From an uncultured virus (IMG/VR IMGVR_UViG_3300042908_000623) (lineage: Duplodnaviria; Heunggongvirae; Uroviricota; Caudoviricetes), in the IMG/VR virus record IMGVR_UViG_3300042908_000623: a DNA stretch of 64,000 nt. One strand, 5' to 3'. Positions 9,844 through 60,057 of the stretch are shown in pieces. The notes beneath the pieces were generated by a model. That model was not told the DNA's origin and ran no database searches. It saw nothing but the letters and a program-made list of their open reading frames with translations. The position numbers were made by a program, and so were the translations under genes. Each line of letters begins with the position of its first letter. Within the stretch, counting starts at the first letter, position 1.

Positions 9844-10193
9844 TTCTCATCCTCCTCGAATCCATATCCCGAGCCTGTGCCGTCATTGCGAGCCAGAACT
9901 CCACGCAACGCATTAACACTCGCGCGCGCCACTCGATCACGCTCTTCCAGTGCGCGACCAAGCGCATTAGGGTGAAAGTACGCCTCCGGCATCAAGCCAT
10001 CTTTGGGCAGGTGGCCTAAGCGACCAGACTTCACCGCACCGTTTAACTCGGTGCGTACTGCGCGAGAGATTCTCGCTTCGATGATCCGCACACCCATTAT
10101 GCGGACTATTTCGACGTTTGCTTGGTTGGCCTGAATCTGGCCGATGCTCATCAGGTATCGCACCTGGTCGAAAGCTGCTTGCTGTCCAGTCAT
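9840..10193 (-). CDS. Hypothetical protein between leader RNA and initiator
   Basis: GGAG RBS before ATG 10193; ATGA overlap with the initiator; absent in unit B. Confidence 0.65.
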   Translation of the reverse strand: MTGQQAAFDQVRYLMSIGQIQANQANVEIVRIMGVRIIEARISRAVRTELNGAVKSGRLGHLPKDGLMPEAYFHPNALGRALEERDRVARASVNALRGVLARNDGTGSGYGFEEDEK

Positions 10194-10374
10194 AGTGATC
10201 TCCAAACGCAAAAGCCCTCTGAGAAGAGCGGGCAGGTAAACGTAGAAAGATTTTAGGATTGACGGCCCTAAAACCCTGACCCGCCTTCTCAGAAGGCTTT
10301 CGATAATATGAGTTGTACTGGCACTTACTTTCTACGTTTCGGCCTGCTACTACTGAGCGTCACCCCAGCGGCCA
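10194..10374 (-). ncRNA. Structured cis-regulatory leader of the replication operon (unit A)
   Basis: 5' hairpin, long stem 10211-10300 ending in a U-rich tract, complementary segments that covary with 59102-59266. Confidence 0.75.
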
Positions 10375-10379
10375 GATAC

Positions 10380-10388
10380 ATTATACCA
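10380..10388 (-). promoter_or_regulatory. Extended -10 promoter (TGn-TATAAT)
   Basis: TGGTATAAT; equivalent TGCTATAAT at 59272-59280. Confidence 0.7.
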
Positions 10389-10397
10389 CACTAGCAA

Positions 10398-10482
10398 TGC
10401 AGGCGGCTGGCTTCGAACCAGCGTTTGTCAGAGATGATTGCGCGCTTCCTCTGACCGTCGTGACCAGTTAGACCACGCCCAC
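10398..10482 (-). ncRNA. tRNA-like element with non-canonical anticodon arm
   Basis: Acceptor GTGGGCG/CGCCTGC-A, D arm GTCTAACTGGTCACGAC, T arm GCTGG-TTCGAAG-CCAGC; anticodon arm replaced by a 7-bp stem with a 15-nt loop. Confidence 0.7.
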
Positions 10483-10600
10483 AAAAAAGTGGGAGTCGCG
10501 GGCACTCCCTCAGTAACCAGCTATTGGAGAAAATAACATGAACCGGTGTCGATGCCCCGTGGCTTCAGATCGCGTGATCTCTGGCTACGACTGCCAGTAA
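10483..10600 (-). ncRNA. Candidate small RNA with anti-RBS/anti-AUG seed and terminator
   Basis: Minus strand reads TTCATGTTATTTTCTCCAAT, then hairpin GGGAGT/ACTCCC plus T6; same design at 59280-59358. Confidence 0.55.
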
Positions 10601-10668
10601 GGGGATGGGCGGGAATCGAACCCGTGCGCGTCAGATCGGGCCAGACCTTTGCGCCACCTATCCATCCC
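10601..10668 (-). ncRNA. tRNA-like domain (acceptor stem plus T arm)
   Basis: GGGATGG/CCATCCC acceptor; CGGG-TTCGATT-CCCG T arm. Confidence 0.6.
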
Positions 10669-11035
10669 AGATGCCGGTCAATCTCTGCCACTGACCGGCT
10701 ATTTGCTCGACGTAGGATCGCTACGATTTGGTGCTGATTTCCAGATCGGGCCTTGACAGTAGTTGCGTTCGATGCCCCAGCGTCGAATCTATTCTATCAA
10801 GACCTTCCTTGCACAAAGAACAACGAGCAAAACTTCAAAAAAACGCAGCGGGGAAGGGCCGTCAATGCGATAGCGACCCATCCCCACATTCCGCCGACAG
10901 GAGTGGCAGCGGAAACCCGTAATAACTTGGTAGGAGGTGGAGAGCGTAGGAAGTATCTCTCCACCTGACCCGGAGCCATACCGGGTAATCGGTGGCAAGC
11001 GATCGTTAGATCGCGCCTGCGGGTGATCAGTCCAC

Positions 11036-11281
11036 CTACACCTGGTCGATAGTCAGATCTGACACCAGATCTGGTATCGACGATATTCTTGCAGGCCTGC
11101 CGCGCTTGAGTAGTGGCGTCTGCTCGACCTCTGCTCTACTGACGGCGCGATAGCTACCAGTCACAGTAGACAGAGAGTAGGGAGTGAGACGGCCAGAGCG
11201 CAACCAGTGATAGATAGTGCTGATTGCGACGCCTTTTGCGGTAGCGGCCTGTCGGATTGTCAAAAGATCAATTTCGTTCAC
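11036..11281 (-). CDS. Excisionase-like HTH regulator, probably leaderless
   Basis: LLTIRQAA..KGV..STIYHWLRSGRL motif; GTG lies 7 nt after a TTGACA-17-GAATGT promoter. Confidence 0.8.
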   Translation of the reverse strand: MNEIDLLTIRQAATAKGVAISTIYHWLRSGRLTPYSLSTVTGSYRAVSRAEVEQTPLLKRGRPARISSIPDLVSDLTIDQV

Positions 11282-11362
11282 GGAGAGAACATTCGAACGA
11301 ACGCGCCCCTTTGTCAAGAATAAAAGTAAACGAATTTTAATAATTTATTTGCAAAATAACTG

Positions 11363-11392
11363 TTGACAATAATCCACGGTCTCCGGTATAGT
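11363..11392 (+). promoter_or_regulatory. Sigma70-type early promoter
   Basis: TTGACA-18-TATAGT with AT-rich upstream region. Confidence 0.8.
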
Positions 11393-11453
11393 GCATTCAT
11401 CGACGGGGGCAATGAGGCTCTCAGAGATGACAACGTAGCTAACAGGAGAAACG

Positions 11454-11723
11454 ATGATGAACTCGAACGAAGCGCATAAGATTTACGATGACCTTAATGA
11501 TAACGGTTACGGATTCGGACTGACGGACAGCGAGAACGCGCTCGTCCACGATGAGATCGCGCAGTCCGGCCTGACCGTGGTGGCCGACCACGGCGACGAG
11601 TTGACCGAGTGCCGCGACATCAAGGGTCACATCCTGCTCGTAGCCGGCGATGGCCGCAAGCGCGGCGCGTGGGCTGTCGATGTGACCCATCCTGATGCTG
11701 GGCGGTTTTTTCGTCGCGCCTAA
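11454..11723 (+). CDS. Acidic hypothetical early protein
   Basis: CAGGAG RBS; first gene after the promoter. Confidence 0.7.
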   Translation: MMNSNEAHKIYDDLNDNGYGFGLTDSENALVHDEIAQSGLTVVADHGDELTECRDIKGHILLVAGDGRKRGAWAVDVTHPDAGRFFRRA

Positions 11724-11980: not shown

Positions 11981-12034
11981 CCATTCACCACAACCAGCGG
12001 CTCGTGATCGGGCCGCGCAACCACAGGAGAAAAC

Positions 12035-13947: not shown

Positions 13948-13972
13948 CAATAACTATTACTCGCGGTATAGT
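13944..13972 (+). promoter_or_regulatory. Second early promoter, duplicate of 11363
   Basis: TTGACA-17-TATAGT; shares upstream TTGCAAAATAACT and downstream CATCGACGGGGGC. Confidence 0.8.
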
Positions 13973-14034
13973 CCAAACATCGACGGGGGCAGTGAGGCTT
14001 CCGAAGACGCAAACGCAGCTAACAGGAGGCGACA

Positions 14035-21178: not shown

Positions 21179-22066
21179 ATGTCGAATATCCAAAGATACG
21201 AACCAGAACAGCCACGGCAGCTCATCCGCAATGCGGGTGATATGTCCGTAGCTGATGCCGCGAATGACGATCAGGTCATCGCGCTATGGTTGGCGACGAA
21301 GCGCAACACAAAGACCGTGTACCAGTATCAGCTATCAGTGCGTCGCCTCTTCGAGGTGACTGGTCGTCAGATCTGCGAGATGACGCTAAATGACCTGCTG
21401 ATATTCACCGACTCGCTTTCGTCGATGCGTCCGGCAACTCAGGCGCAGCGGATAGCATCGGTCAAGTCGCTGTACAGCTTCTGCCACAAGATCGGATACG
21501 TTCGCGTCAACGTGGCGGCATTGCTCAGAGCACCTCAGAGCAAGGACACTCTCAACGAACGCATCCTGACCGAAGAGGAGGTGCTGAGGCTTACGATGGC
21601 GGCTTGGAGTCCTCGCGACAAGGCACTCATCCGTATGCTGTATCGTACGGCCGGCCGAATATCGGAGGTCGTGACCATCACCTGGGCGGATCTGGTCGTC
21701 AAGCCTGAGCAAGGTCAGGTCACGCTATTCGGCAAAGGCGGCAAGACGCGAGTGGTGCAGATACCATTAACGCTTGTGTCAGCGTTGCAGGATATTCGTG
21801 ACGGGGCAGAGAATAGCGAGCGTATCTTTCCGATCACTCGTCAGAGGGCGTGGAGTATCGTCAAGGCCACGGCGAAGCGCGCAGGCATCACGGACAAGCT
21901 CTCGCCGCACTGGTTCAGGCATAGCCACGCCACACACTCACTCGACCACGGCGCGCCGCTGAAGCTGGTCAGCTCAACGCTGGGTCATTCGTCGATCTCA
22001 ATCACCGATCGATATTTGCACAATAGGCCGGACGAGTCGTCCGGTGATTTTCTTAAAGTTGGTTAA
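21179..22066 (+). CDS. Tyrosine recombinase (XerC/D-like)
   Basis: RISE, GKGGK, HWFRH, LGH, TDRY catalytic set. Confidence 0.92.
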   Translation: MSNIQRYEPEQPRQLIRNAGDMSVADAANDDQVIALWLATKRNTKTVYQYQLSVRRLFEVTGRQICEMTLNDLLIFTDSLSSMRPATQAQRIASVKSLYSFCHKIGYVRVNVAALLRAPQSKDTLNERILTEEEVLRLTMAAWSPRDKALIRMLYRTAGRISEVVTITWADLVVKPEQGQVTLFGKGGKTRVVQIPLTLVSALQDIRDGAENSERIFPITRQRAWSIVKATAKRAGITDKLSPHWFRHSHATHSLDHGAPLKLVSSTLGHSSISITDRYLHNRPDESSGDFLKVG

Positions 22067-22088
22067 ACCACAGAAGGAACTTTCGAAT

Positions 22089-23024
22089 ATGAATAACGGA
22101 TTAGACAAGAACATTGACCTCTCAACTTCGACCACTGCTCATACTCAGCCCAAGATGGAATGGCTTCGAGTGACGCCTCAGATGGCTGAGGAATGGTTAA
22201 AGCTGAACACAGAGAACCGCCCAGTCAAGTCAAGTCAGGTAGCATACTTGCAACGCGAAATCACATCAGGTCGATTTATTGGCACTGGGTCGCCGATTAT
22301 TTTTGTAGGTAAAACATTGGTTGATGGTCAGCATCGCCTGATGGCTATTGTACGGGCTGACAAGGCCGTTGATATGATGGTAGTACGTCACCCTGTCAAC
22401 GCGCAGACGAAGCAGATTTTTCACGTCATCGACACTGGAGTTAAACGCAGCTTTGCGGACTTGCTGTCTTTAAAAGGAGAGAAAAATGTGACTCAGTTAA
22501 GCGCTATATTAAAGGTGCTTGAGATCTATCATACTGCCAAAGATCTGTCAGATGGTCGATTTATACCTTATACTTTTCTTAGTCGACAATTAGTTATGCA
22601 TCGTCTTACCGCCCAAGAACAGCGTGGATCATCGAAACTATCTCGCAAGCAAGAATTGAACTGGCTTGATAAATACTCAGACGCTCGTGAATCCGCGGCG
22701 TTTTGTAAGCGTTACCCTTCAGCCAAATTCATAACGCCTGCATCACTGGGAGTTCTGCATTACGTCCTGACAGAAATTGACGCGTCATTTGCTCAAGAGT
22801 TCCTCGTGACTTTAATGGAAGGTGGCGCACCTCGTGAAAGCCCGATTCATTTAGTTCGAGAGACGTTGATTAGACAGCATTCAAGCTCAGCGTCAGATCA
22901 AAAGAGTATCGCCTTTGCATATGTAGCTTTGCTTGTCTTTTCTGCCTGGAATGCGACAAGGGCCGGCAATACGTTAAAGAGGAAAGATATCGAAGCAGGG
23001 AAGCCGATTCCCTTGCCGATGTAA
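22089..23024 (+). CDS. ParB/Srx-like N-terminal domain protein
   Basis: VTP.MA.EWL..N..NR, LVDGQHRLMAI, IDTG..RS; lower GC. Confidence 0.7.
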   Translation: MNNGLDKNIDLSTSTTAHTQPKMEWLRVTPQMAEEWLKLNTENRPVKSSQVAYLQREITSGRFIGTGSPIIFVGKTLVDGQHRLMAIVRADKAVDMMVVRHPVNAQTKQIFHVIDTGVKRSFADLLSLKGEKNVTQLSAILKVLEIYHTAKDLSDGRFIPYTFLSRQLVMHRLTAQEQRGSSKLSRKQELNWLDKYSDARESAAFCKRYPSAKFITPASLGVLHYVLTEIDASFAQEFLVTLMEGGAPRESPIHLVRETLIRQHSSSASDQKSIAFAYVALLVFSAWNATRAGNTLKRKDIEAGKPIPLPM

Positions 23025-23029
23025 TTGGA

Positions 23030-23064
23030 TGGCCAGCTTGATACGATTCAGGCTGGCCGTTTCT
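23030..23064 (+). terminator. Probable intrinsic terminator
   Basis: GGCCAGCTTG/CAGGCTGGCC stem plus GTTTCT. Confidence 0.5.
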
Positions 23065-23095
23065 ACAGACTCATCGAATCAGGAGACGTGACGCA

Positions 23096-23293
23096 ATGGC
23101 AACGATCGAAGAGGAAGCGGCAAAGCGAATGGCACTAGCCAAGAAGCTCAACCCGTGGATGGCGATTGACTATCTTGAAAGCGTGGTTGAGATGCAAGCG
23201 GCAGATATCGCAGCGTTGAAGTCGCGGATCGCTGAACTTGAGCGAGAGCTTACGAACTGGCCGATTGAGTATGAAAACGAAAGGACGAGGTAG
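23096..23293 (+). CDS. Small coiled-coil protein
   Basis: Paralogue of 50099-50257 (RIAELERELT.WPIEYE). Confidence 0.7.
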   Translation: MATIEEEAAKRMALAKKLNPWMAIDYLESVVEMQAADIAALKSRIAELERELTNWPIEYENERTR

Positions 23294-23294
23294 T

Positions 23295-23594
23295 ATGGCA
23301 AGGAAAACAAAAAAAACGAAGAGACCGTGCACGGCTGGCCCATACGTTGTTCGACCGAGAGGTTGGGGCACTGCTATCGAAGGGCCGAAGGGAGAGCCGA
23401 TCGGATGGTGCGGCGACAACTACAGCTCGATGGGTGGAAGCGTGCCACACTTGGAGAACGCGACACTCTTTGCGTCGTCGTACGAGCTTCACTGTTTGCT
23501 GACTGAGGCATTAGCAAGCAATGCTATCAAAGATGAGATCTGGATAAGCAAAGCCCGTGAGGTGCTGAGCAGATCCAATGTGTCATCGAAATAA
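23295..23594 (+). CDS. Hypothetical phage protein
   Basis: GAGG RBS; T.GPY...ENATL.A pattern. Confidence 0.55.
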   Translation: MARKTKKTKRPCTAGPYVVRPRGWGTAIEGPKGEPIGWCGDNYSSMGGSVPHLENATLFASSYELHCLLTEALASNAIKDEIWISKAREVLSRSNVSSK

Positions 23595-23605
23595 GGACAA
23601 TCAAA

Positions 23606-23998
23606 ATGGGACGACCGCGAAAGATGCCGACAAAGGCAAACATTCTTGACTACTGGCAAAACTGTCAAAAAATGTGGGATGCTCCTAAATCAATCAACAT
23701 ATGCATGGCGTGCGGTTTTGATGGCTTGATCAGTAGGTGTCACGTTCAATCAGTTGCGGATGGGGGAAGTGATGATCTGAGCAACATCGTCCTGCTATGT
23801 CGCAGTTGTCATTACAGACAAGAGTCCGTATGCGTCACCGAATACGGGCGAGCTTCATTTATGAGTTCGTTGATGGACGGTGCGCCATACATGGTAGCGC
23901 GAGCAACAGAGTTGATGACAAGCGCGAAGATGATGGGATACGTGGATGAGTCAGTCCAGCCCACGCCAAGCGGGATAGCTTTACTAAGCCATCTCTAA
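23606..23998 (+). CDS. HNH endonuclease
   Basis: CMACG...RCHV....GG.DD.SN..LLC..CH. Confidence 0.8.
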   Translation: MGRPRKMPTKANILDYWQNCQKMWDAPKSINICMACGFDGLISRCHVQSVADGGSDDLSNIVLLCRSCHYRQESVCVTEYGRASFMSSLMDGAPYMVARATELMTSAKMMGYVDESVQPTPSGIALLSHL

Positions 23999-24012
23999 AC
24001 TAAAATAACTTA

Positions 24013-24040
24013 GTATTACTAAACCACTATTTAGTAAATA
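24013..24040. promoter_or_regulatory. AT-rich inverted repeat (operator or recombination site)
   Basis: TTACTAAA-CCACTA-TTTAGTAA within an AT-rich gap upstream of cas6e. Confidence 0.45.
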
Positions 24041-24104
24041 GGAAAATAGCAGTAATGCAGTAAAATCAGGCCTTCCAGCCTCTCACACAGAAAGGATCAC
24101 CACA

Positions 24105-24779
24105 TTGTTCGTCTCGGTTTTATACCCAAACCACACACGGCGCATCGTACAGATGGAGCTTGAGGACTGTCACGCCATCCATCGGCGACTGATGCGAGCT
24201 TTCCCGGAGATGCCGAACATCGAAGAGTCACGCCGCCACTTCGGAGTCCTCTATCGACTCGAGACCGACGACACTCTTCATCGCCCCCGGATCATCGTCC
24301 AGTCGCGCATTCTTCCTGACTGGTCTGCCAATGGTATACCGTTCGACTACTTCGACAACATCGAAGAGTCGTCGTGCGCCAGCATCGCTTCCAGGTACGA
24401 CGCTATCACCACTGACGAGGTAATGCCCTTCCTCCTTCGCGGCAATCCCACCAAGCGACTATCCAGCAAGAACGGCATCAACGGAAAGCGCGTCGCCATC
24501 AAAGACGAGGCCGGCTGGCACGACTGGCTCAAGCGCAAGTCTGAACAGTCAGGCTTTGAGGTTCTGAACCTCAGCAAGTGCGGACAGCCTGAGCACAAGA
24601 TCGGTCGCCAGCTCGTGACCGCATCGAGCCTTAGCGGATATGGCGACCGCCGAATGACCTTCACCAGCATCGACTTTGCCGGAACACTTCGCGTCACCAA
24701 CGCCGACGACTTCAGGCTTGCCCTATGCGATGGTATAGGCACGGGCAAAGCGTTTGGCTACGGGCTGCTGCTGGTCTAA
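24105..24779 (+). CDS. cas6e: Type I-E CRISPR RNA endoribonuclease Cas6e (CasE/Cse3), orphan
   Basis: HRRLMRAF, VLYRLE, IVQS...PDW, FLLRGNPTK, GKR, WL.RK...GF, F.GTL.V, C-terminal G-loop GIGTGKAFGYGLL; TTG start with AAAGGA RBS. Confidence 0.92.
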   Translation: MFVSVLYPNHTRRIVQMELEDCHAIHRRLMRAFPEMPNIEESRRHFGVLYRLETDDTLHRPRIIVQSRILPDWSANGIPFDYFDNIEESSCASIASRYDAITTDEVMPFLLRGNPTKRLSSKNGINGKRVAIKDEAGWHDWLKRKSEQSGFEVLNLSKCGQPEHKIGRQLVTASSLSGYGDRRMTFTSIDFAGTLRVTNADDFRLALCDGIGTGKAFGYGLLLV

Positions 24780-24808
24780 AACGGCCACTACACGAAAGGC
24801 TATTCACC

Positions 24809-25039
24809 ATGGACACAACTACCGCAGCTTTGATTTTCATTTACGCAATGGGCGTAATCACGGGGCTAGTGATCAATCACGGCAAGGGCAACGGAGTGAC
24901 GATCACTCAGACCTACAACGAGTCCGAACCGGCGGTCAACATATCGACAATGCCAGGTATCGAGATATCCGACACCGACTGGCCGGACTCACTCGACACC
25001 GACAACCTCAACAACACAAAAGGAAACGACAACAAATGA
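24809..25039 (+). CDS. Small single-TM protein
   Basis: N-terminal hydrophobic helix; ATGA overlap with dnaN. Confidence 0.55.
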   Translation: MDTTTAALIFIYAMGVITGLVINHGKGNGVTITQTYNESEPAVNISTMPGIEISDTDWPDSLDTDNLNNTKGNDNK

Positions 25040-26133
25040 ACTTCAGAATAGGCAAATCATCACTCCTTAAAGAACTCGCATTCCTGCAAGGCGCGATCGC
25101 GCACAAGTCCACAATGCCGATACTACAGAATGTGCACATATCCTCAACGAGTGGGGGATTGAATCTTCGAGCTACAGACCTTGACGTGCACATCGCAACC
25201 TTCGCGGATGCGACGATCGATAGCGAAGGATCAGCGTGCATTCCCGCAAAGCGTTTTCACGACATCGTAAAGGCACTGCCAGACGCTGAGATCACGATTA
25301 CCACGAACGACACCGAAGCCGTGATCAAGTGCCAGCGCAGCCGCTTCAGGCTCTCAACGTCCCACCCTGACGGATATCCCAACAGTCGCACTGCTCCCTC
25401 TTCCCTGCTGCCGATATCCGCATCGATTCTCAGCACAATGATTGACCGCGTACAGTTCGCGGCATCGAAGGAAGAGTCGCGTTACGCGCTCAATGGCGTC
25501 AAGTTTGAGCTAGCCGAAGGCAAGGCGCGAATGGTCGCCACAGACAGTCACCGGATGGCATACATCGAGCGTGACGTGTACTACGAAGGCGCACCTATTG
25601 ACGTGCTGATTCCCGCCAAGACACTCGACCTTGTGTCAAAGCTGGCGTCGTCATCGGACACTATATCGATCGGATACGAAAACACGACGGTGTTCTTTGA
25701 GGTCGGCAAGCGCGTCATTGCCAGCCGTGTACTTGCTGGTCAGTTCCCGAACTATCGACTTGTGATGGCGAATCATCCTGAGCGGATCGCAGTCAACGCT
25801 CAAGAGTTTGCGTCCGCCTTACGTCGAGTTGCGTTGGTTGCAGACGCTCAGTCATCGTCGGTCAAACTAACGATGAATCGCGACCTCGTGAGTATATCGG
25901 CTGCGTCTCAGGACGTGGGAGACGCTGGCGAGGATGTGCCGTCAAACGTCCCGGAAGCGTTGATAGGTCAGTCGATAGGGCTGAAGTCTGGGTACGTGGC
26001 CGACTTCTTCACCGCTTGCAATGCGGTAAATATGACCATCGACTACAAGGACAGTATGTCACAGATCGTGATGAGACCCACAGATGACGGTGACTACGAT
26101 TACCAGTATATCGTGATGCCGATGAGGGTCTGA
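25036..26133 (+). CDS. dnaN: DNA polymerase III sliding clamp (beta subunit)
   Basis: ATDLD, SRYALNGV, VATDSHRMA, GQFPNY, YIVMPMRV. Confidence 0.95.
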   Translation: MNFRIGKSSLLKELAFLQGAIAHKSTMPILQNVHISSTSGGLNLRATDLDVHIATFADATIDSEGSACIPAKRFHDIVKALPDAEITITTNDTEAVIKCQRSRFRLSTSHPDGYPNSRTAPSSLLPISASILSTMIDRVQFAASKEESRYALNGVKFELAEGKARMVATDSHRMAYIERDVYYEGAPIDVLIPAKTLDLVSKLASSSDTISIGYENTTVFFEVGKRVIASRVLAGQFPNYRLVMANHPERIAVNAQEFASALRRVALVADAQSSSVKLTMNRDLVSISAASQDVGDAGEDVPSNVPEALIGQSIGLKSGYVADFFTACNAVNMTIDYKDSMSQIVMRPTDDGDYDYQYIVMPMRV

Positions 26134-59101: not shown

Positions 59102-59266
59102 GTAACCTCCAAACAAAAAGCCCTTTGAGAAAACGGGCAGGTGGGAAACTGGTGATAGGTTGACGGCCTATCGGTTGCCTGACCCGCCTTCTCAAAAGGC
59201 TCATTGATGTTGATATTGCCCAGTTTCCCATGTGGCCTCCGTTGCCGGGCGTCACCCCAGCGGCCA
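59102..59266 (-). ncRNA. Structured cis-regulatory leader of the replication operon (unit B)
   Basis: Same fold as 10194-10374 with compensatory changes. Confidence 0.75.
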
Positions 59267-59279
59267 GATACATTATAGC

Positions 59280-59358
59280 AAAAAATTAGGGGGATTGCTC
59301 CCCCTTCAGTGGAACCAATTGGAGAAAATAACCATGAAACTCCAACGCATTGTTGGAA
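59280..59358 (-). ncRNA. Candidate anti-RBS small RNA
   Basis: 5' hairpin, TTTCATGGTTATTTTCTCCAAT, terminator AGGGGGA-GCAA-TCCCCCT plus T-tract. Confidence 0.55.
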
Positions 59359-59402
59359 GAGATAGCGGGGAGTTGCACCCCGATTGGCTCGGCCTCTATC
59401 CC
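59359..59402 (-). ncRNA. Minimal tRNA-like domain
   Basis: Acceptor GGGATAG/CTATCTC; T arm CGGGG-TGCAACT-CCCCG. Confidence 0.55.
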
Positions 59403-59582
59403 TGCCGCACCCTGCCCCGGAATGCGGCGATTGACTGGTTGCGGGATCACCGCCGGTCGCTCTGTTGTGCTGTAACCAAAATCCCTTGATGCCAAAGCGA
59501 TAAAAAGAACGGCCCAGTCAAACTGTCAAATAGGATGGGGGGAGGCTCCGAGTGAGTGATTCCGCCTCCCCGATCCCGGCAA

Positions 59583-59861
59583 TTAGGGTTCGTTAGTTCC
59601 CTCGGGCTGCGGGTGAGCGTCCGTTGCCGGTGTCTCTGCGATGTCTGCGGCTTTGGCTGATCGCAACGCACCCGGACGCGCCGTGGTGTCACGAGCTGTC
59701 AGCACAGCCTGCCGGGCAAATAGATATAGTGGGCGACGCTGACCGCCGCGCAGGACATGCACAGCCGTCAGGTGTCCGGCCTTCAGCCAGACCAATATGT
59801 TCTGGCGGGTCGTCCCTGCCAGCTCAGCCGCCTGCGATGATGTCATCAGTTCGTCGTTCAT
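59583..59861 (-). CDS. Excisionase-like HTH regulator, probably leaderless
   Basis: LMTSSQAAELAG.TRQNI..W.K.G.L; ATG lies 7 nt after TTGACA-17-TAGGAT. Confidence 0.8.
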   Translation of the reverse strand: MNDELMTSSQAAELAGTTRQNILVWLKAGHLTAVHVLRGGQRRPLYLFARQAVLTARDTTARPGALRSAKAADIAETPATDAHPQPEGTNEP

Positions 59862-59964
59862 CGCTGCCATCCTACATGTAGATGTCCAATGTGTCAATAG
59901 GAAAATTAGAACAAGGCGGAAAGGCTTACGGTAAATCTTTTTTTAAGGTACAGCTATTTTCTTA

Positions 59965-59993
59965 TTGACAACTAAGGTGACTCGGCATATAGT
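59965..59993 (+). promoter_or_regulatory. Sigma70-type early promoter (unit B)
   Basis: TTGACA-17-TATAGT followed by the same leader as 11363. Confidence 0.8.
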
Positions 59994-60057
59994 GCATTCA
60001 TCGACGGGGGCAATGAGGTTCTCGAAGATAACAACGACGGACAATAGGAGAACGACA

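Follow-up and report, generated by a model that had tools for sequence, protein, structure and literature searches.

Why should a phage place a tRNA-like element between the first gene of an early transcript and its replication genes? The question is raised by a 64,000-nt stretch of DNA from an uncultured virus of the Caudoviricetes (IMG/VR record IMGVR_UViG_3300042908_000623), referred to here as the window, which contains two related lambdoid-type prophage units with such an element in each. A preliminary description, made from the letters without database searches, had read the element as a processing tag that releases an anti-Shine-Dalgarno small RNA. We consider it probable that the rightward immediate-early transcript has its 3′ end here, with a reduced tRNA sitting in a tRNA slot, followed by a conserved trailer and an intrinsic terminator.

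The interval between the HTH gene and the replication operon

In each prophage unit, one operon runs leftward on the plus strand and another runs rightward on the minus strand. The leftward operon carries a RecT-like gene and has a promoter of the form TTGACA-17/18-TATAGT (11363–11392 in unit A and 59965–59993 in unit B). The rightward operon encodes a small HTH_17/MerR-like protein, followed by an O-like replication initiator (phrog_9773) and a DnaB helicase. Integrase, Cas6e-like and DnaN-like genes sit between the two units. The order common to both units is HTH gene, tRNA-like element, trailer, terminator, promoter, leader, O-like initiator and DnaB, and the features of the interval are as follows.

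Unit A
11036–11317, minus strand: ORF for the HTH protein (HTH_17/MerR-like; Cro- or excisionase-like), which opens the rightward early transcript containing the element
10601–10668, minus strand: 68-nt tRNA derivative without a D arm, with a 7-bp acceptor, central hairpin, T arm and discriminator C, and no encoded CCA
10581–10597, minus strand: short hairpin of 5 bp with a 7-nt loop, read by eye, beginning 4 nt past the tRNA-like element
10523–10542, minus strand: conserved 20-nt tract, of which the plus strand reads as RBS, ATG and AA
10483–10509, minus strand: intrinsic terminator (stem 10491–10509, T run 10483–10488)
10399–10482, minus strand: second tRNA-like element, in unit A only, between the terminator and the replication promoter; the preliminary description did not mention it
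10357–10388, minus strand: replication promoter and start of the leader, with an extended −10 sequence TGnTATAAT at 10380–10388 (repeat D17)

Unit B
59583–59897, minus strand: gene for a small HTH protein, with its promoter (TTGACA-17-TAGGAT at 59897–59869)
59359–59402, minus strand: 44-nt tRNA "top-half" minihelix, with a 7-bp acceptor, 13-nt linker, 5-bp T stem and loop UGCAACU
59342–59356, minus strand: 5′ hairpin of the trailer, 5 bp with a 5-nt loop, beginning 2 nt past the minihelix
59318–59338, minus strand: conserved 21-nt tract, shared with unit A
59280–59305, minus strand: intrinsic terminator (stem 59288–59305, T run 59280–59285)

The element of acceptor stem and T arm, the hairpin, the tract and the terminator that had been claimed for both units are indeed present in the sequence. 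Their claimed order also holds, but the tract does not lie immediately behind the element and hairpin in unit A, where ~60 nt separate element and tract. The tract had been called the best-conserved sequence here; that place belongs to the promoter/leader block, which is 97% identical across 32 nt between 10357–10388 and 59249–59280 (repeat D17). For comparison, the DNA of the O-like gene is 83% identical between the units (repeat D2).

What would transcribe this interval, and where would transcription stop? The unit A HTH protein matches Pfam HTH_17 (E 1.4e-4) and MerR (E 1.6e-3), both under Pfam's own cut-offs, and its PHROG families are a MerR-like regulator and an excisionase. A promoter-like site for its gene lies at 11369–11342 on the minus strand. 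Within the element and trailer region of either unit, a scan of both strands gave no promoter-like site. At the position of the replication promoter, relatives of these phages have TTGACA-17-TATAAT. A T run near ~10845 in unit A may end the HTH transcript earlier, in which case the tRNA-like element would be without an identified promoter. By analogy with lambda, the unit A terminator is the putative counterpart of tR1, ending the HTH transcript. The stem sequences of the two terminators differ, with hairpin and T run retained, and an A-to-G strain variant in the unit A terminator keeps its pairing as G-U. The unit B terminator overlaps the TG of the replication operon's extended −10 promoter (59272–59280).

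Of the 20 listed sequencing runs that carry the locus, none is recorded as RNA, and the DNA runs are mostly labelled as lake, freshwater or soil metagenomes. A blastn search of a phage GenBank collection with 10200–11400 gave zero matches.

Real tRNAs and reduced tRNAs in one slot

Are the elements tRNA genes? Neither forms a canonical tRNA, with its full cloverleaf, D arm and 5-bp anticodon stem with a 7-nt loop. ARAGORN finds 0 tRNA genes in the window, and Rfam, applied to the whole window at gathering thresholds, recognises nothing at either element. We counted both as having a 7-bp acceptor on a 5-bp T stem with a 7-nt loop, the actual pairing being 7 + 4 bp in unit A, where position 49:65 is mismatched, and 7 + 5 bp in unit B. 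In unit A, the acceptor is formed by 10668–10662 (5′ strand) and 10608–10602 (3′ strand) and is followed by the discriminator at 10601, all on the minus strand; the T arm has 4 bp, the A/C mismatch at 49:65 and a canonical 7-nt T loop. This element is recovered by a descriptor for acceptor and T arm, and its Rfam matches at E up to 10 are to tRNA-Sec (17.8 bits, gathering 47) and mascRNA (16.8 bits, gathering 42.5). Strain variants within it alter the unpaired 49:65 position and change a G-U of the central stem to G-C. In unit B, the T stem with its 7-nt loop abuts the 3′ strand of the acceptor, and the loop departs at one position from the universal T loop, at U55; Rfam has no match for this element at E up to 10. 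Folding energies are unremarkable for the unit A element, which folds as a three-way junction (−28.7 kcal/mol, z −1.3), for the unit B minihelix (z −1.2) and for the whole unit A RNA (z −0.7).

The second element of unit A has a 7-bp acceptor with a G3-U70 pair, a D-loop-like GG and a T arm, and a 7-bp stem with a 15-nt loop replaces the anticodon arm. Rfam has no match for it at E up to 10, and its homologue in a related locus, L063, exceeds the gathering score of the Rfam tRNA model (see below). The sequence of the central stem differs between the two homologues and pairs in both. Unit B lacks this second element.

To place these elements, we compared the window with 60-odd related phage loci gathered in three ways: by the exact tract, by the O-like protein (40 viral and 5 genome loci) and by the leader pattern of the replication operon (13 viral and 48 metagenome loci). 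Of the 48, at least 13 matched by chance and were excluded (L069, L077, L080, L082, L088, L090, L097, L100, L104, L106, L110, L114 and L115). The true relatives have a constant order: HTH gene, purine-rich hairpin, a variable structured region, short hairpin, ~30 nt, intrinsic terminator, and replication promoter with leader. In 12 of 22 lineages the HTH gene is followed by a GTTCTTT motif, which we take to resemble boxA. Several lineages have a real tRNA at the end of the variable region, exactly at the position of the window's tRNA-like element, and this slot lies between the Cro-like HTH gene and the replication operon.

The evidence for real tRNAs in the slot comes from two detectors. Of 34 metagenome loci, three have ARAGORN calls, namely tRNA-Lys(UUU) in L073 and L084 and tRNA-Glu(UUC) plus tRNA-Gln(UUG) in L075; the 13 viral loci have none. 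The Rfam tRNA model gives six matches above its gathering score of 29 bits, in 5 of the 15 loci searched: 70.7 and 64.3 bits in L075, 43.7 in L073, 39.0 in L085, 37.1 in L063 (the homologue of the second unit A element) and 34.6 in L108. The matches in L085, L108 and L063 are near-tRNAs. After the tRNAs of the relatives come the discriminator and one more base, and then a short hairpin, a stretch at the position of the tract, and the terminator. In L073, L084 and L075 the trailer starts right 3′ of the tRNA and ends at an intrinsic terminator, as a 3′ external transcribed spacer does; the same type of trailer in the window sits behind tRNA-like elements, not true tRNAs. It is 74–80 nt long in unit B, L073, L075 and L085, and 119 nt long in unit A. 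Its hairpin begins within 1–4 nt of the discriminator and is followed by a less structured stretch of ~30 nt and then by the terminator. The short hairpin of unit A is absent from the minimum-energy fold of the 188-nt RNA, and its position matches that of the trailer hairpin in the relatives.

Unit B is linked to a real tRNA, the tRNA-Lys of L073. The two T arms are the same except for essentially one loop substitution. Both strands of the acceptor stem differ from those of the tRNA-Lys at most positions, yet seven pairs form. In an alignment of unit B with five relatives (A4), the T arm, the acceptor 3′ strand and the trailer hairpin fall in the same columns, and the T arm and acceptor 3′ strand of unit B match the tRNA-Lys of L073 column for column. 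In this alignment, 96.4% of cells pair, 4 of 10 pairs are changed on both sides, and the covariation score was reached in 0 of 500 shuffles. The trailer hairpin of unit B has two pairs that are changed on both sides relative to the hairpin of the relatives and are still paired.

Across the relatives, the contents of the slot form a graded series. We searched with a descriptor that specifies a 7-bp acceptor stem, a T stem and the loop U[U/G]C[A/G]A; it gave 58 matches across the window and the collected relatives, against 1–3 in each of three shuffles. The series begins with full tRNAs and passes through near-tRNAs with odd anticodon arms (L085, L116 and L108) and a 78-nt family in L067, L073 and L083. 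It continues with the second element of unit A and its L063 homologue, and with bodies that have no D arm (unit A and, as judged by eye, L094). It ends in minihelices of 44–47 nt with the loop UGCAA(C/G)U, which occur in five lineages: unit B; L063; L091, L103 and L111; L085; and L116. In the alignment of these five lineages, all 12 pairs are always paired, a figure that is partly by construction because the descriptor that selected the sequences demands pairing. Of these 12 pairs, 10 are changed on both sides, and the core of the loop is invariant. A covariance model built from the minihelices found only its own seeds in 427 kb. Among the 30 distinct elements listed by the descriptor, there is no encoded CCA after the element, and the discriminator is usually A, then U.

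What do these comparisons establish? The slot and its trailer are homologous across lineages, and covariation preserves the acceptor stem, T stem, trailer hairpin and terminator. The unit A and unit B elements are most readily taken as tRNA derivatives at a slot where relatives carry real tRNA genes, a view that these data support. It is also well supported, as a matter of structure, that the acceptor/T-arm half alone has apparently been kept by selection, with compensatory changes. The earlier reading of the element as a tRNA-like processing tag therefore divides in two: the slot and the compensatory changes bear out a selected, tRNA-derived structure, and cleavage itself would be a further, predicted step.

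The shared tract and competing accounts of the locus

On the minus strand, the tract reads TTCATG(G)TTATTTTCTCCAAT in both units. Its 14-nt core has exactly two occurrences in the window; with up to two mismatches allowed, 0.26 matches are expected, and two or more matches occur in 4 of 100 shuffles. The trailers of units A and B align across ~40 nt with a score of 44, the best of 30 shuffles reaching 33. The tract is common to units A and B only, and one relative (L058) has part of it. Other trailers have other sequences at this place. For example, the L059 group has a different 9-nt block adjoining the terminator, invariant in 9 of 9 sequences. The sole widely recurring trailer element among the relatives is UUUCAU. 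Whether the tract is single-stranded, as had been claimed, is uncertain: the minimum-energy fold of unit B pairs its CUCCAA with an upstream UUGGAG. As to the features of an Hfq-type small regulatory RNA, both units have the terminator and U tail; the candidate seed, the tract, is restricted to A and B, and part of it is paired in the minimum-energy fold of unit B.

Two simple origins for these sequences were considered and rejected. The trailer could be an inverted copy of the start of the O-like gene (MKLQRIVGR, similar to MKLTKILGS), and the alignment scores lie within shuffled noise. The tract could be a direct copy of the leftward promoter-leader cassette, and the scores of 22–24 compare with 20–33 in shuffles. 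The minus-strand ORFs of nine codons that begin at the AUG of the tract were also rejected, since they are in different frames in A and B.

Could the trailer be an anti-Shine-Dalgarno RNA? According to this proposal, which is that of the preliminary description, the trailer is freed by tRNA-processing nucleases, and its UUUUCUCC core together with the complement of AUGAA blocks initiation regions of host mRNAs or of the leftward genes. There is some evidence in its favor. GGAGAAAA occurs five times in the window, always on the plus strand. Three of these copies fall at RBSs of leftward early genes (12026, 60554 and 60885), which share a stereotyped RBS (repeats D9 and D12), and the other two are the tract's own complement. 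The more distant lineage L058 carries AUUUUCUCC at the corresponding point of its trailer, where the opposite strand lacks a start codon, and the general shape of the trailer is that of an Hfq-type sRNA. The early-gene starts that had been named as targets do exist, at 12025 and 60884. However, they do not stand out when 265 candidate start sites are ranked: 12035 comes 11th with tract A and 60894 comes 54th with tract B, and the first leftward genes take places 24 and 42. In a duplex scan of both window strands, the only outliers were the tract's own antisense (about −54 kcal/mol) and that of the sister unit (about −33 kcal/mol), all other sites in the window giving a background of −24 to −27 kcal/mol. 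In four related phage records, each scanned with its own tract, there was likewise no outlier beyond self-antisense. The tract resembles leftward start sites and the start of the O-like gene no more than shuffled sequences do, and its CUCC is internally paired in the unit B minimum-energy fold. CUCC pairs with any Shine-Dalgarno sequence, so the complementarity is not specific and says little on its own. The homologous trailers of L073, L075, L085/L108/L116, L063 and the L059 group have unrelated sequence in place of the tract. A search for the exact 21-mer matched seven viral loci, of which three are related and four are unrelated AT-rich contigs. With its tract replaced in homologous trailers and no target above background in the window, the anti-Shine-Dalgarno RNA is very unlikely as an account of the locus, and a function for the tract's likeness to an anti-RBS sequence is not supported.

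The recurrence of the 21-mer in unrelated AT-rich phages bears as well on a different account, in which the plus strand is the functional one and the tract is the RBS and start of a small protein, or belongs to a type I toxin-antitoxin-like pair in which the minus-strand RNA would be the antidote. In three of the four unrelated contigs (L001, L002 and L004), the 21-mer is placed, as judged by eye, where an RBS and ATG would fall on the other strand. On the plus strand of the window, the tract reads GGAG, 8–9 nt, ATG and AA, a layout like that of the phage's leftward genes, and ATGAAA, the complement of UUUCAU, recurs opposite the trailers of unit B, L075 and L094 and of the second units of L073 and L108. 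Against this, the plus-strand peptides (20 aa and 51 aa) are unrelated, as had been noted before, and are not hydrophobic, and the opposite-strand ORFs of the relatives (11–65 aa) are unrelated and mostly have no RBS. No promoter-like site was found on the plus strand upstream of either tract, and the T run of the upstream hairpin is on the minus strand only. The hallmarks of a type I toxin-antitoxin locus, a small hydrophobic toxin ORF with its own promoter and an antisense RNA, do not come together here, and a plus-strand function is highly improbable. An account that needs no function for either strand is decay: the elements would be eroding tRNA pseudogenes beside an ordinary terminator, and the tract would be shared by A and B through recent ancestry or recombination. 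Decay of this kind would yield much of the same picture. Over 40 nt the trailers of A and B share ~85% identity, on a par with the 83% seen in the neighboring O-like gene DNA; both elements are rejected by ARAGORN and by the Rfam tRNA model; and tRNA-like cassettes come and go between close relatives, L067 having one and L059 none, and unit A having a second that unit B lacks. In addition, four DNA metagenome runs have 10 variable positions in 10300–10800 and 0 within the unit A tract, and an invariant A-type tract offers no variation that could reveal selection. Decay explains the failed tRNA detectors and the turnover of cassettes, but not the rebuilt helices. It should break pairing, whereas the acceptor stem of unit B keeps its seven pairs despite its divergence from the related tRNA-Lys, and in the five lineages with minihelices both helices persist through the two-sided changes, with the loop core invariant. 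Trailer length and architecture are likewise retained across lineages of which the sequences can no longer be aligned. For these reasons, we regard decay as unlikely.

Proposed transcript punctuation and its known counterparts

How might a reduced tRNA at the end of the rightward immediate-early transcript work? The acceptor/T-arm half of a tRNA is the part recognised by RNase P, RNase Z and the CCA-adding enzyme, and in tRNA precursors that lack CCA, RNase Z cuts right after the discriminator. Within the window's slot, the tRNA would have been reduced to a body without a D arm in unit A and to a bare acceptor/T-arm minihelix in unit B. Since the top half alone is retained and the top half is what processing enzymes read, punctuation of the transcript is the most economical function to propose for it. 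Specifically, RNase P would cut at the 5′ side of the element, and RNase Z or RNase E just past the discriminator, separating the HTH mRNA from a trailer RNA of 75–120 nt. The trailer RNA would be stabilised by its 5′ hairpin and by the 3′ terminator with its U tail, and the terminator would stop transcription ahead of the promoter of the replication operon. The trailer may in addition act as a small regulatory RNA, with the variable middle setting its specificity.

What are the implications of such an arrangement? Work on phage tRNA genes mostly treats them as supplements for codon usage or as substitutes for tRNAs that host defences cleave, a theme of PMC10264068 and PMC11464382. Here, one genomic slot holds a graded series from full tRNAs through near-tRNAs and bodies without a D arm to bare minihelices. 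Selection only on the half that enzymes read suggests a second use of tRNAs by phages, in which they punctuate early transcripts and free a small trailer RNA. If this is true, the minihelix would be a compact natural substrate of RNase P and RNase Z; if not, the locus would be a clean example of tRNA gene erosion in prophages. If the trailers are stable RNAs, they would constitute a class of phage regulator that is listed in no RNA-family library. A bolder version would hold that freshwater temperate phages have made tRNA genes into processing tags, pared to the acceptor/T-arm half and at the extreme to a 44-nt minihelix with a conserved UGCAA(C/G)U loop of its own, from which RNase P and RNase Z free a lineage-specific sRNA, the seed in A and B being an anti-RBS sequence against the GGAGAAA(A) starts of leftward genes or against host mRNAs; we think it quite unlikely that all of this holds. 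The variable middle, as a determinant of specificity in that version, could be compared with the RNA immunity factors of P1 and P4.

Several known systems share parts of this architecture. In lambda, the terminator in the nutR-tR1 region follows the first rightward gene and gates access to the replication genes. The interval with element and terminator between HTH gene and replication genes in the window has the same position and logic. To our knowledge, the lambda nutR-tR1 region has no tRNA or tRNA-like element, and here, unlike in lambda, the replication operon comes in addition with a promoter of its own and a structured leader. A precedent for cleavage comes from mascRNA at the 3′ end of MALAT1, where a mimic of the acceptor and T arm is the signal for cleavage of a longer transcript by RNase P and RNase Z. 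The match of the unit A element to the mascRNA model is weak, far under gathering, and the context here is that of a bacterial phage. Phages also have regulators that RNase P helps to excise from a longer early transcript, namely the C4 RNAs of P1 and P7 and the CI RNA of P4, which act by pairing with RBS-containing or leader sequences. Rfam gives no match to C4 in 10100–11500 at E up to 10 or in the whole window at gathering, and the duplex scan of both strands found no complementary target boxes of the C4/CI type in the own operon or the window. In contrast to C4 and CI, where the tRNA-like part belongs to the RNA, it is here a separate module upstream of the candidate RNA.

The known system that comes closest is a tRNA-operon spacer of E. 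coli, the 3′ external transcribed spacer (3′ETS). Such spacers can base-pair with sRNAs, as stated in PMC7213987 (citing Lalaouna 2015). Like the trailers described here, 3′ETS-leuZ of the glyW-cysT-leuZ operon is non-coding and extends from the last tRNA to the operon's intrinsic terminator. The trailers of the window differ from it in following a reduced tRNA-like element and in lying behind a protein gene in a phage early operon, and they have no sequence similarity to it. The trailer of a tRNA operon is a kind of RNA that is already known, and the variant with a reduced tRNA-like element is new.

Transcription signals of the two operons

The replication operon, which forms the rightward operon on the minus strand together with the HTH gene, begins with a structured leader in both prophage units (A and B). 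This leader is conserved in about 50 related phage loci among L056-L116, on phage contigs from lake, soil and sediment. Behind the promoter lies a small stem-loop region, itself conserved; next comes a long hairpin whose terminal U run lies immediately 5' of the first RBS. In locus L063, the promoter and 5' leader occur in two tandem copies. A search of the window and its relatives matched the leader to no Rfam family. The leader looks like an attenuator or antitermination target.

Signals of the replication operon and its upstream region
10212-10379, minus strand: structured leader, unit A
59117-59271, minus strand: structured leader, unit B
10815-10821, minus strand: GTTCTTT motif, 3' of the purine-rich hairpin that follows the HTH gene
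59504-59510, minus strand: GTTCTTT motif, 3' of the purine-rich hairpin that follows the HTH gene

Further upstream, the GTTCTTT motif is present in 12 of the 22 lineages whose upstream regions were searched. This motif resembles the boxA antitermination element, so it may mark a nutR-like site 5' of the terminator.

The leftward operon, on the plus strand, uses one promoter-leader cassette three times (repeat D9 of the window), and its genes have a stereotyped start region in common, ACAGGAGAAA(A)C followed by ATG.

Signals of the leftward operon
11384-11448, plus strand: promoter-leader cassette, D9 copy
13964-14028, plus strand: promoter-leader cassette, D9 copy
59985-60049, plus strand: promoter-leader cassette, D9 copy
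11445, 11774, 12026, 14495, 60554 and 60885, plus strand: RBSs

Between units A and B, 21179-26133 (plus strand) carries three genes, and this segment is either host DNA or phage cargo.

Genes between the units
Within 21179-26133, plus strand: tyrosine integrase
Within 21179-26133, plus strand: Cas6e-type CRISPR-associated protein
Within 21179-26133, plus strand: DnaN-like sliding clamp, extended at its N terminus

The slot between HTH gene and replication operon

In units A and B this slot holds a tRNA-like element, a trailer RNA and an intrinsic terminator. The trailer of a sister lineage (L057, L059, L065, L067, L072, L083, L092, L093 and L107) is about 80% conserved overall. An SD-like block of 9 nt adjoining its terminator is invariant in all nine sequences, unlike the terminator stems, which vary. 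Behind this trailer comes a small ORF whose RBS is similar.

Unit A has a second tRNA-like element, without a counterpart in unit B.

Second tRNA-like element
10399-10482, minus strand: directly between terminator and replication promoter, unit A

Its acceptor stem has G3-U70 and discriminator A, a GG resembles that of a D loop, the anticodon arm is replaced by a 7-bp stem capped by a 15-nt loop, and the T arm is 5 bp. The L063 homologue scores 37.1 bits, above the Rfam tRNA gathering score.

Inspection by eye showed that about 200 nt at 10540-10780 (minus strand) contain five GATC sites; here unit A has two copies of a GATC-containing 11-nt direct repeat, one within the tRNA-like element; unit B, L061 and L064 have instead a repeated GC-rich motif with GATC at its centre.

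tRNAs and tRNA-like elements in relatives

A 78-nt tRNA-like family occurs in L067, L073/L084 and L083/L092/L093/L109. Its T arm is canonical, and its acceptor stem varies in sequence between lineages with pairing kept; neither ARAGORN nor Rfam called it. Compared with L059, the element is an insertion in L067.

In L073, L084 and L075, the slot contains real tRNAs: Lys(UUU), Glu(UUC) and Gln(UUG). All three have the modified wobble U at which anticodon nucleases are directed, which hints that the slot originated as a counter-defence tRNA kit. This idea can be compared with PMC10264068 and PMC11464382.
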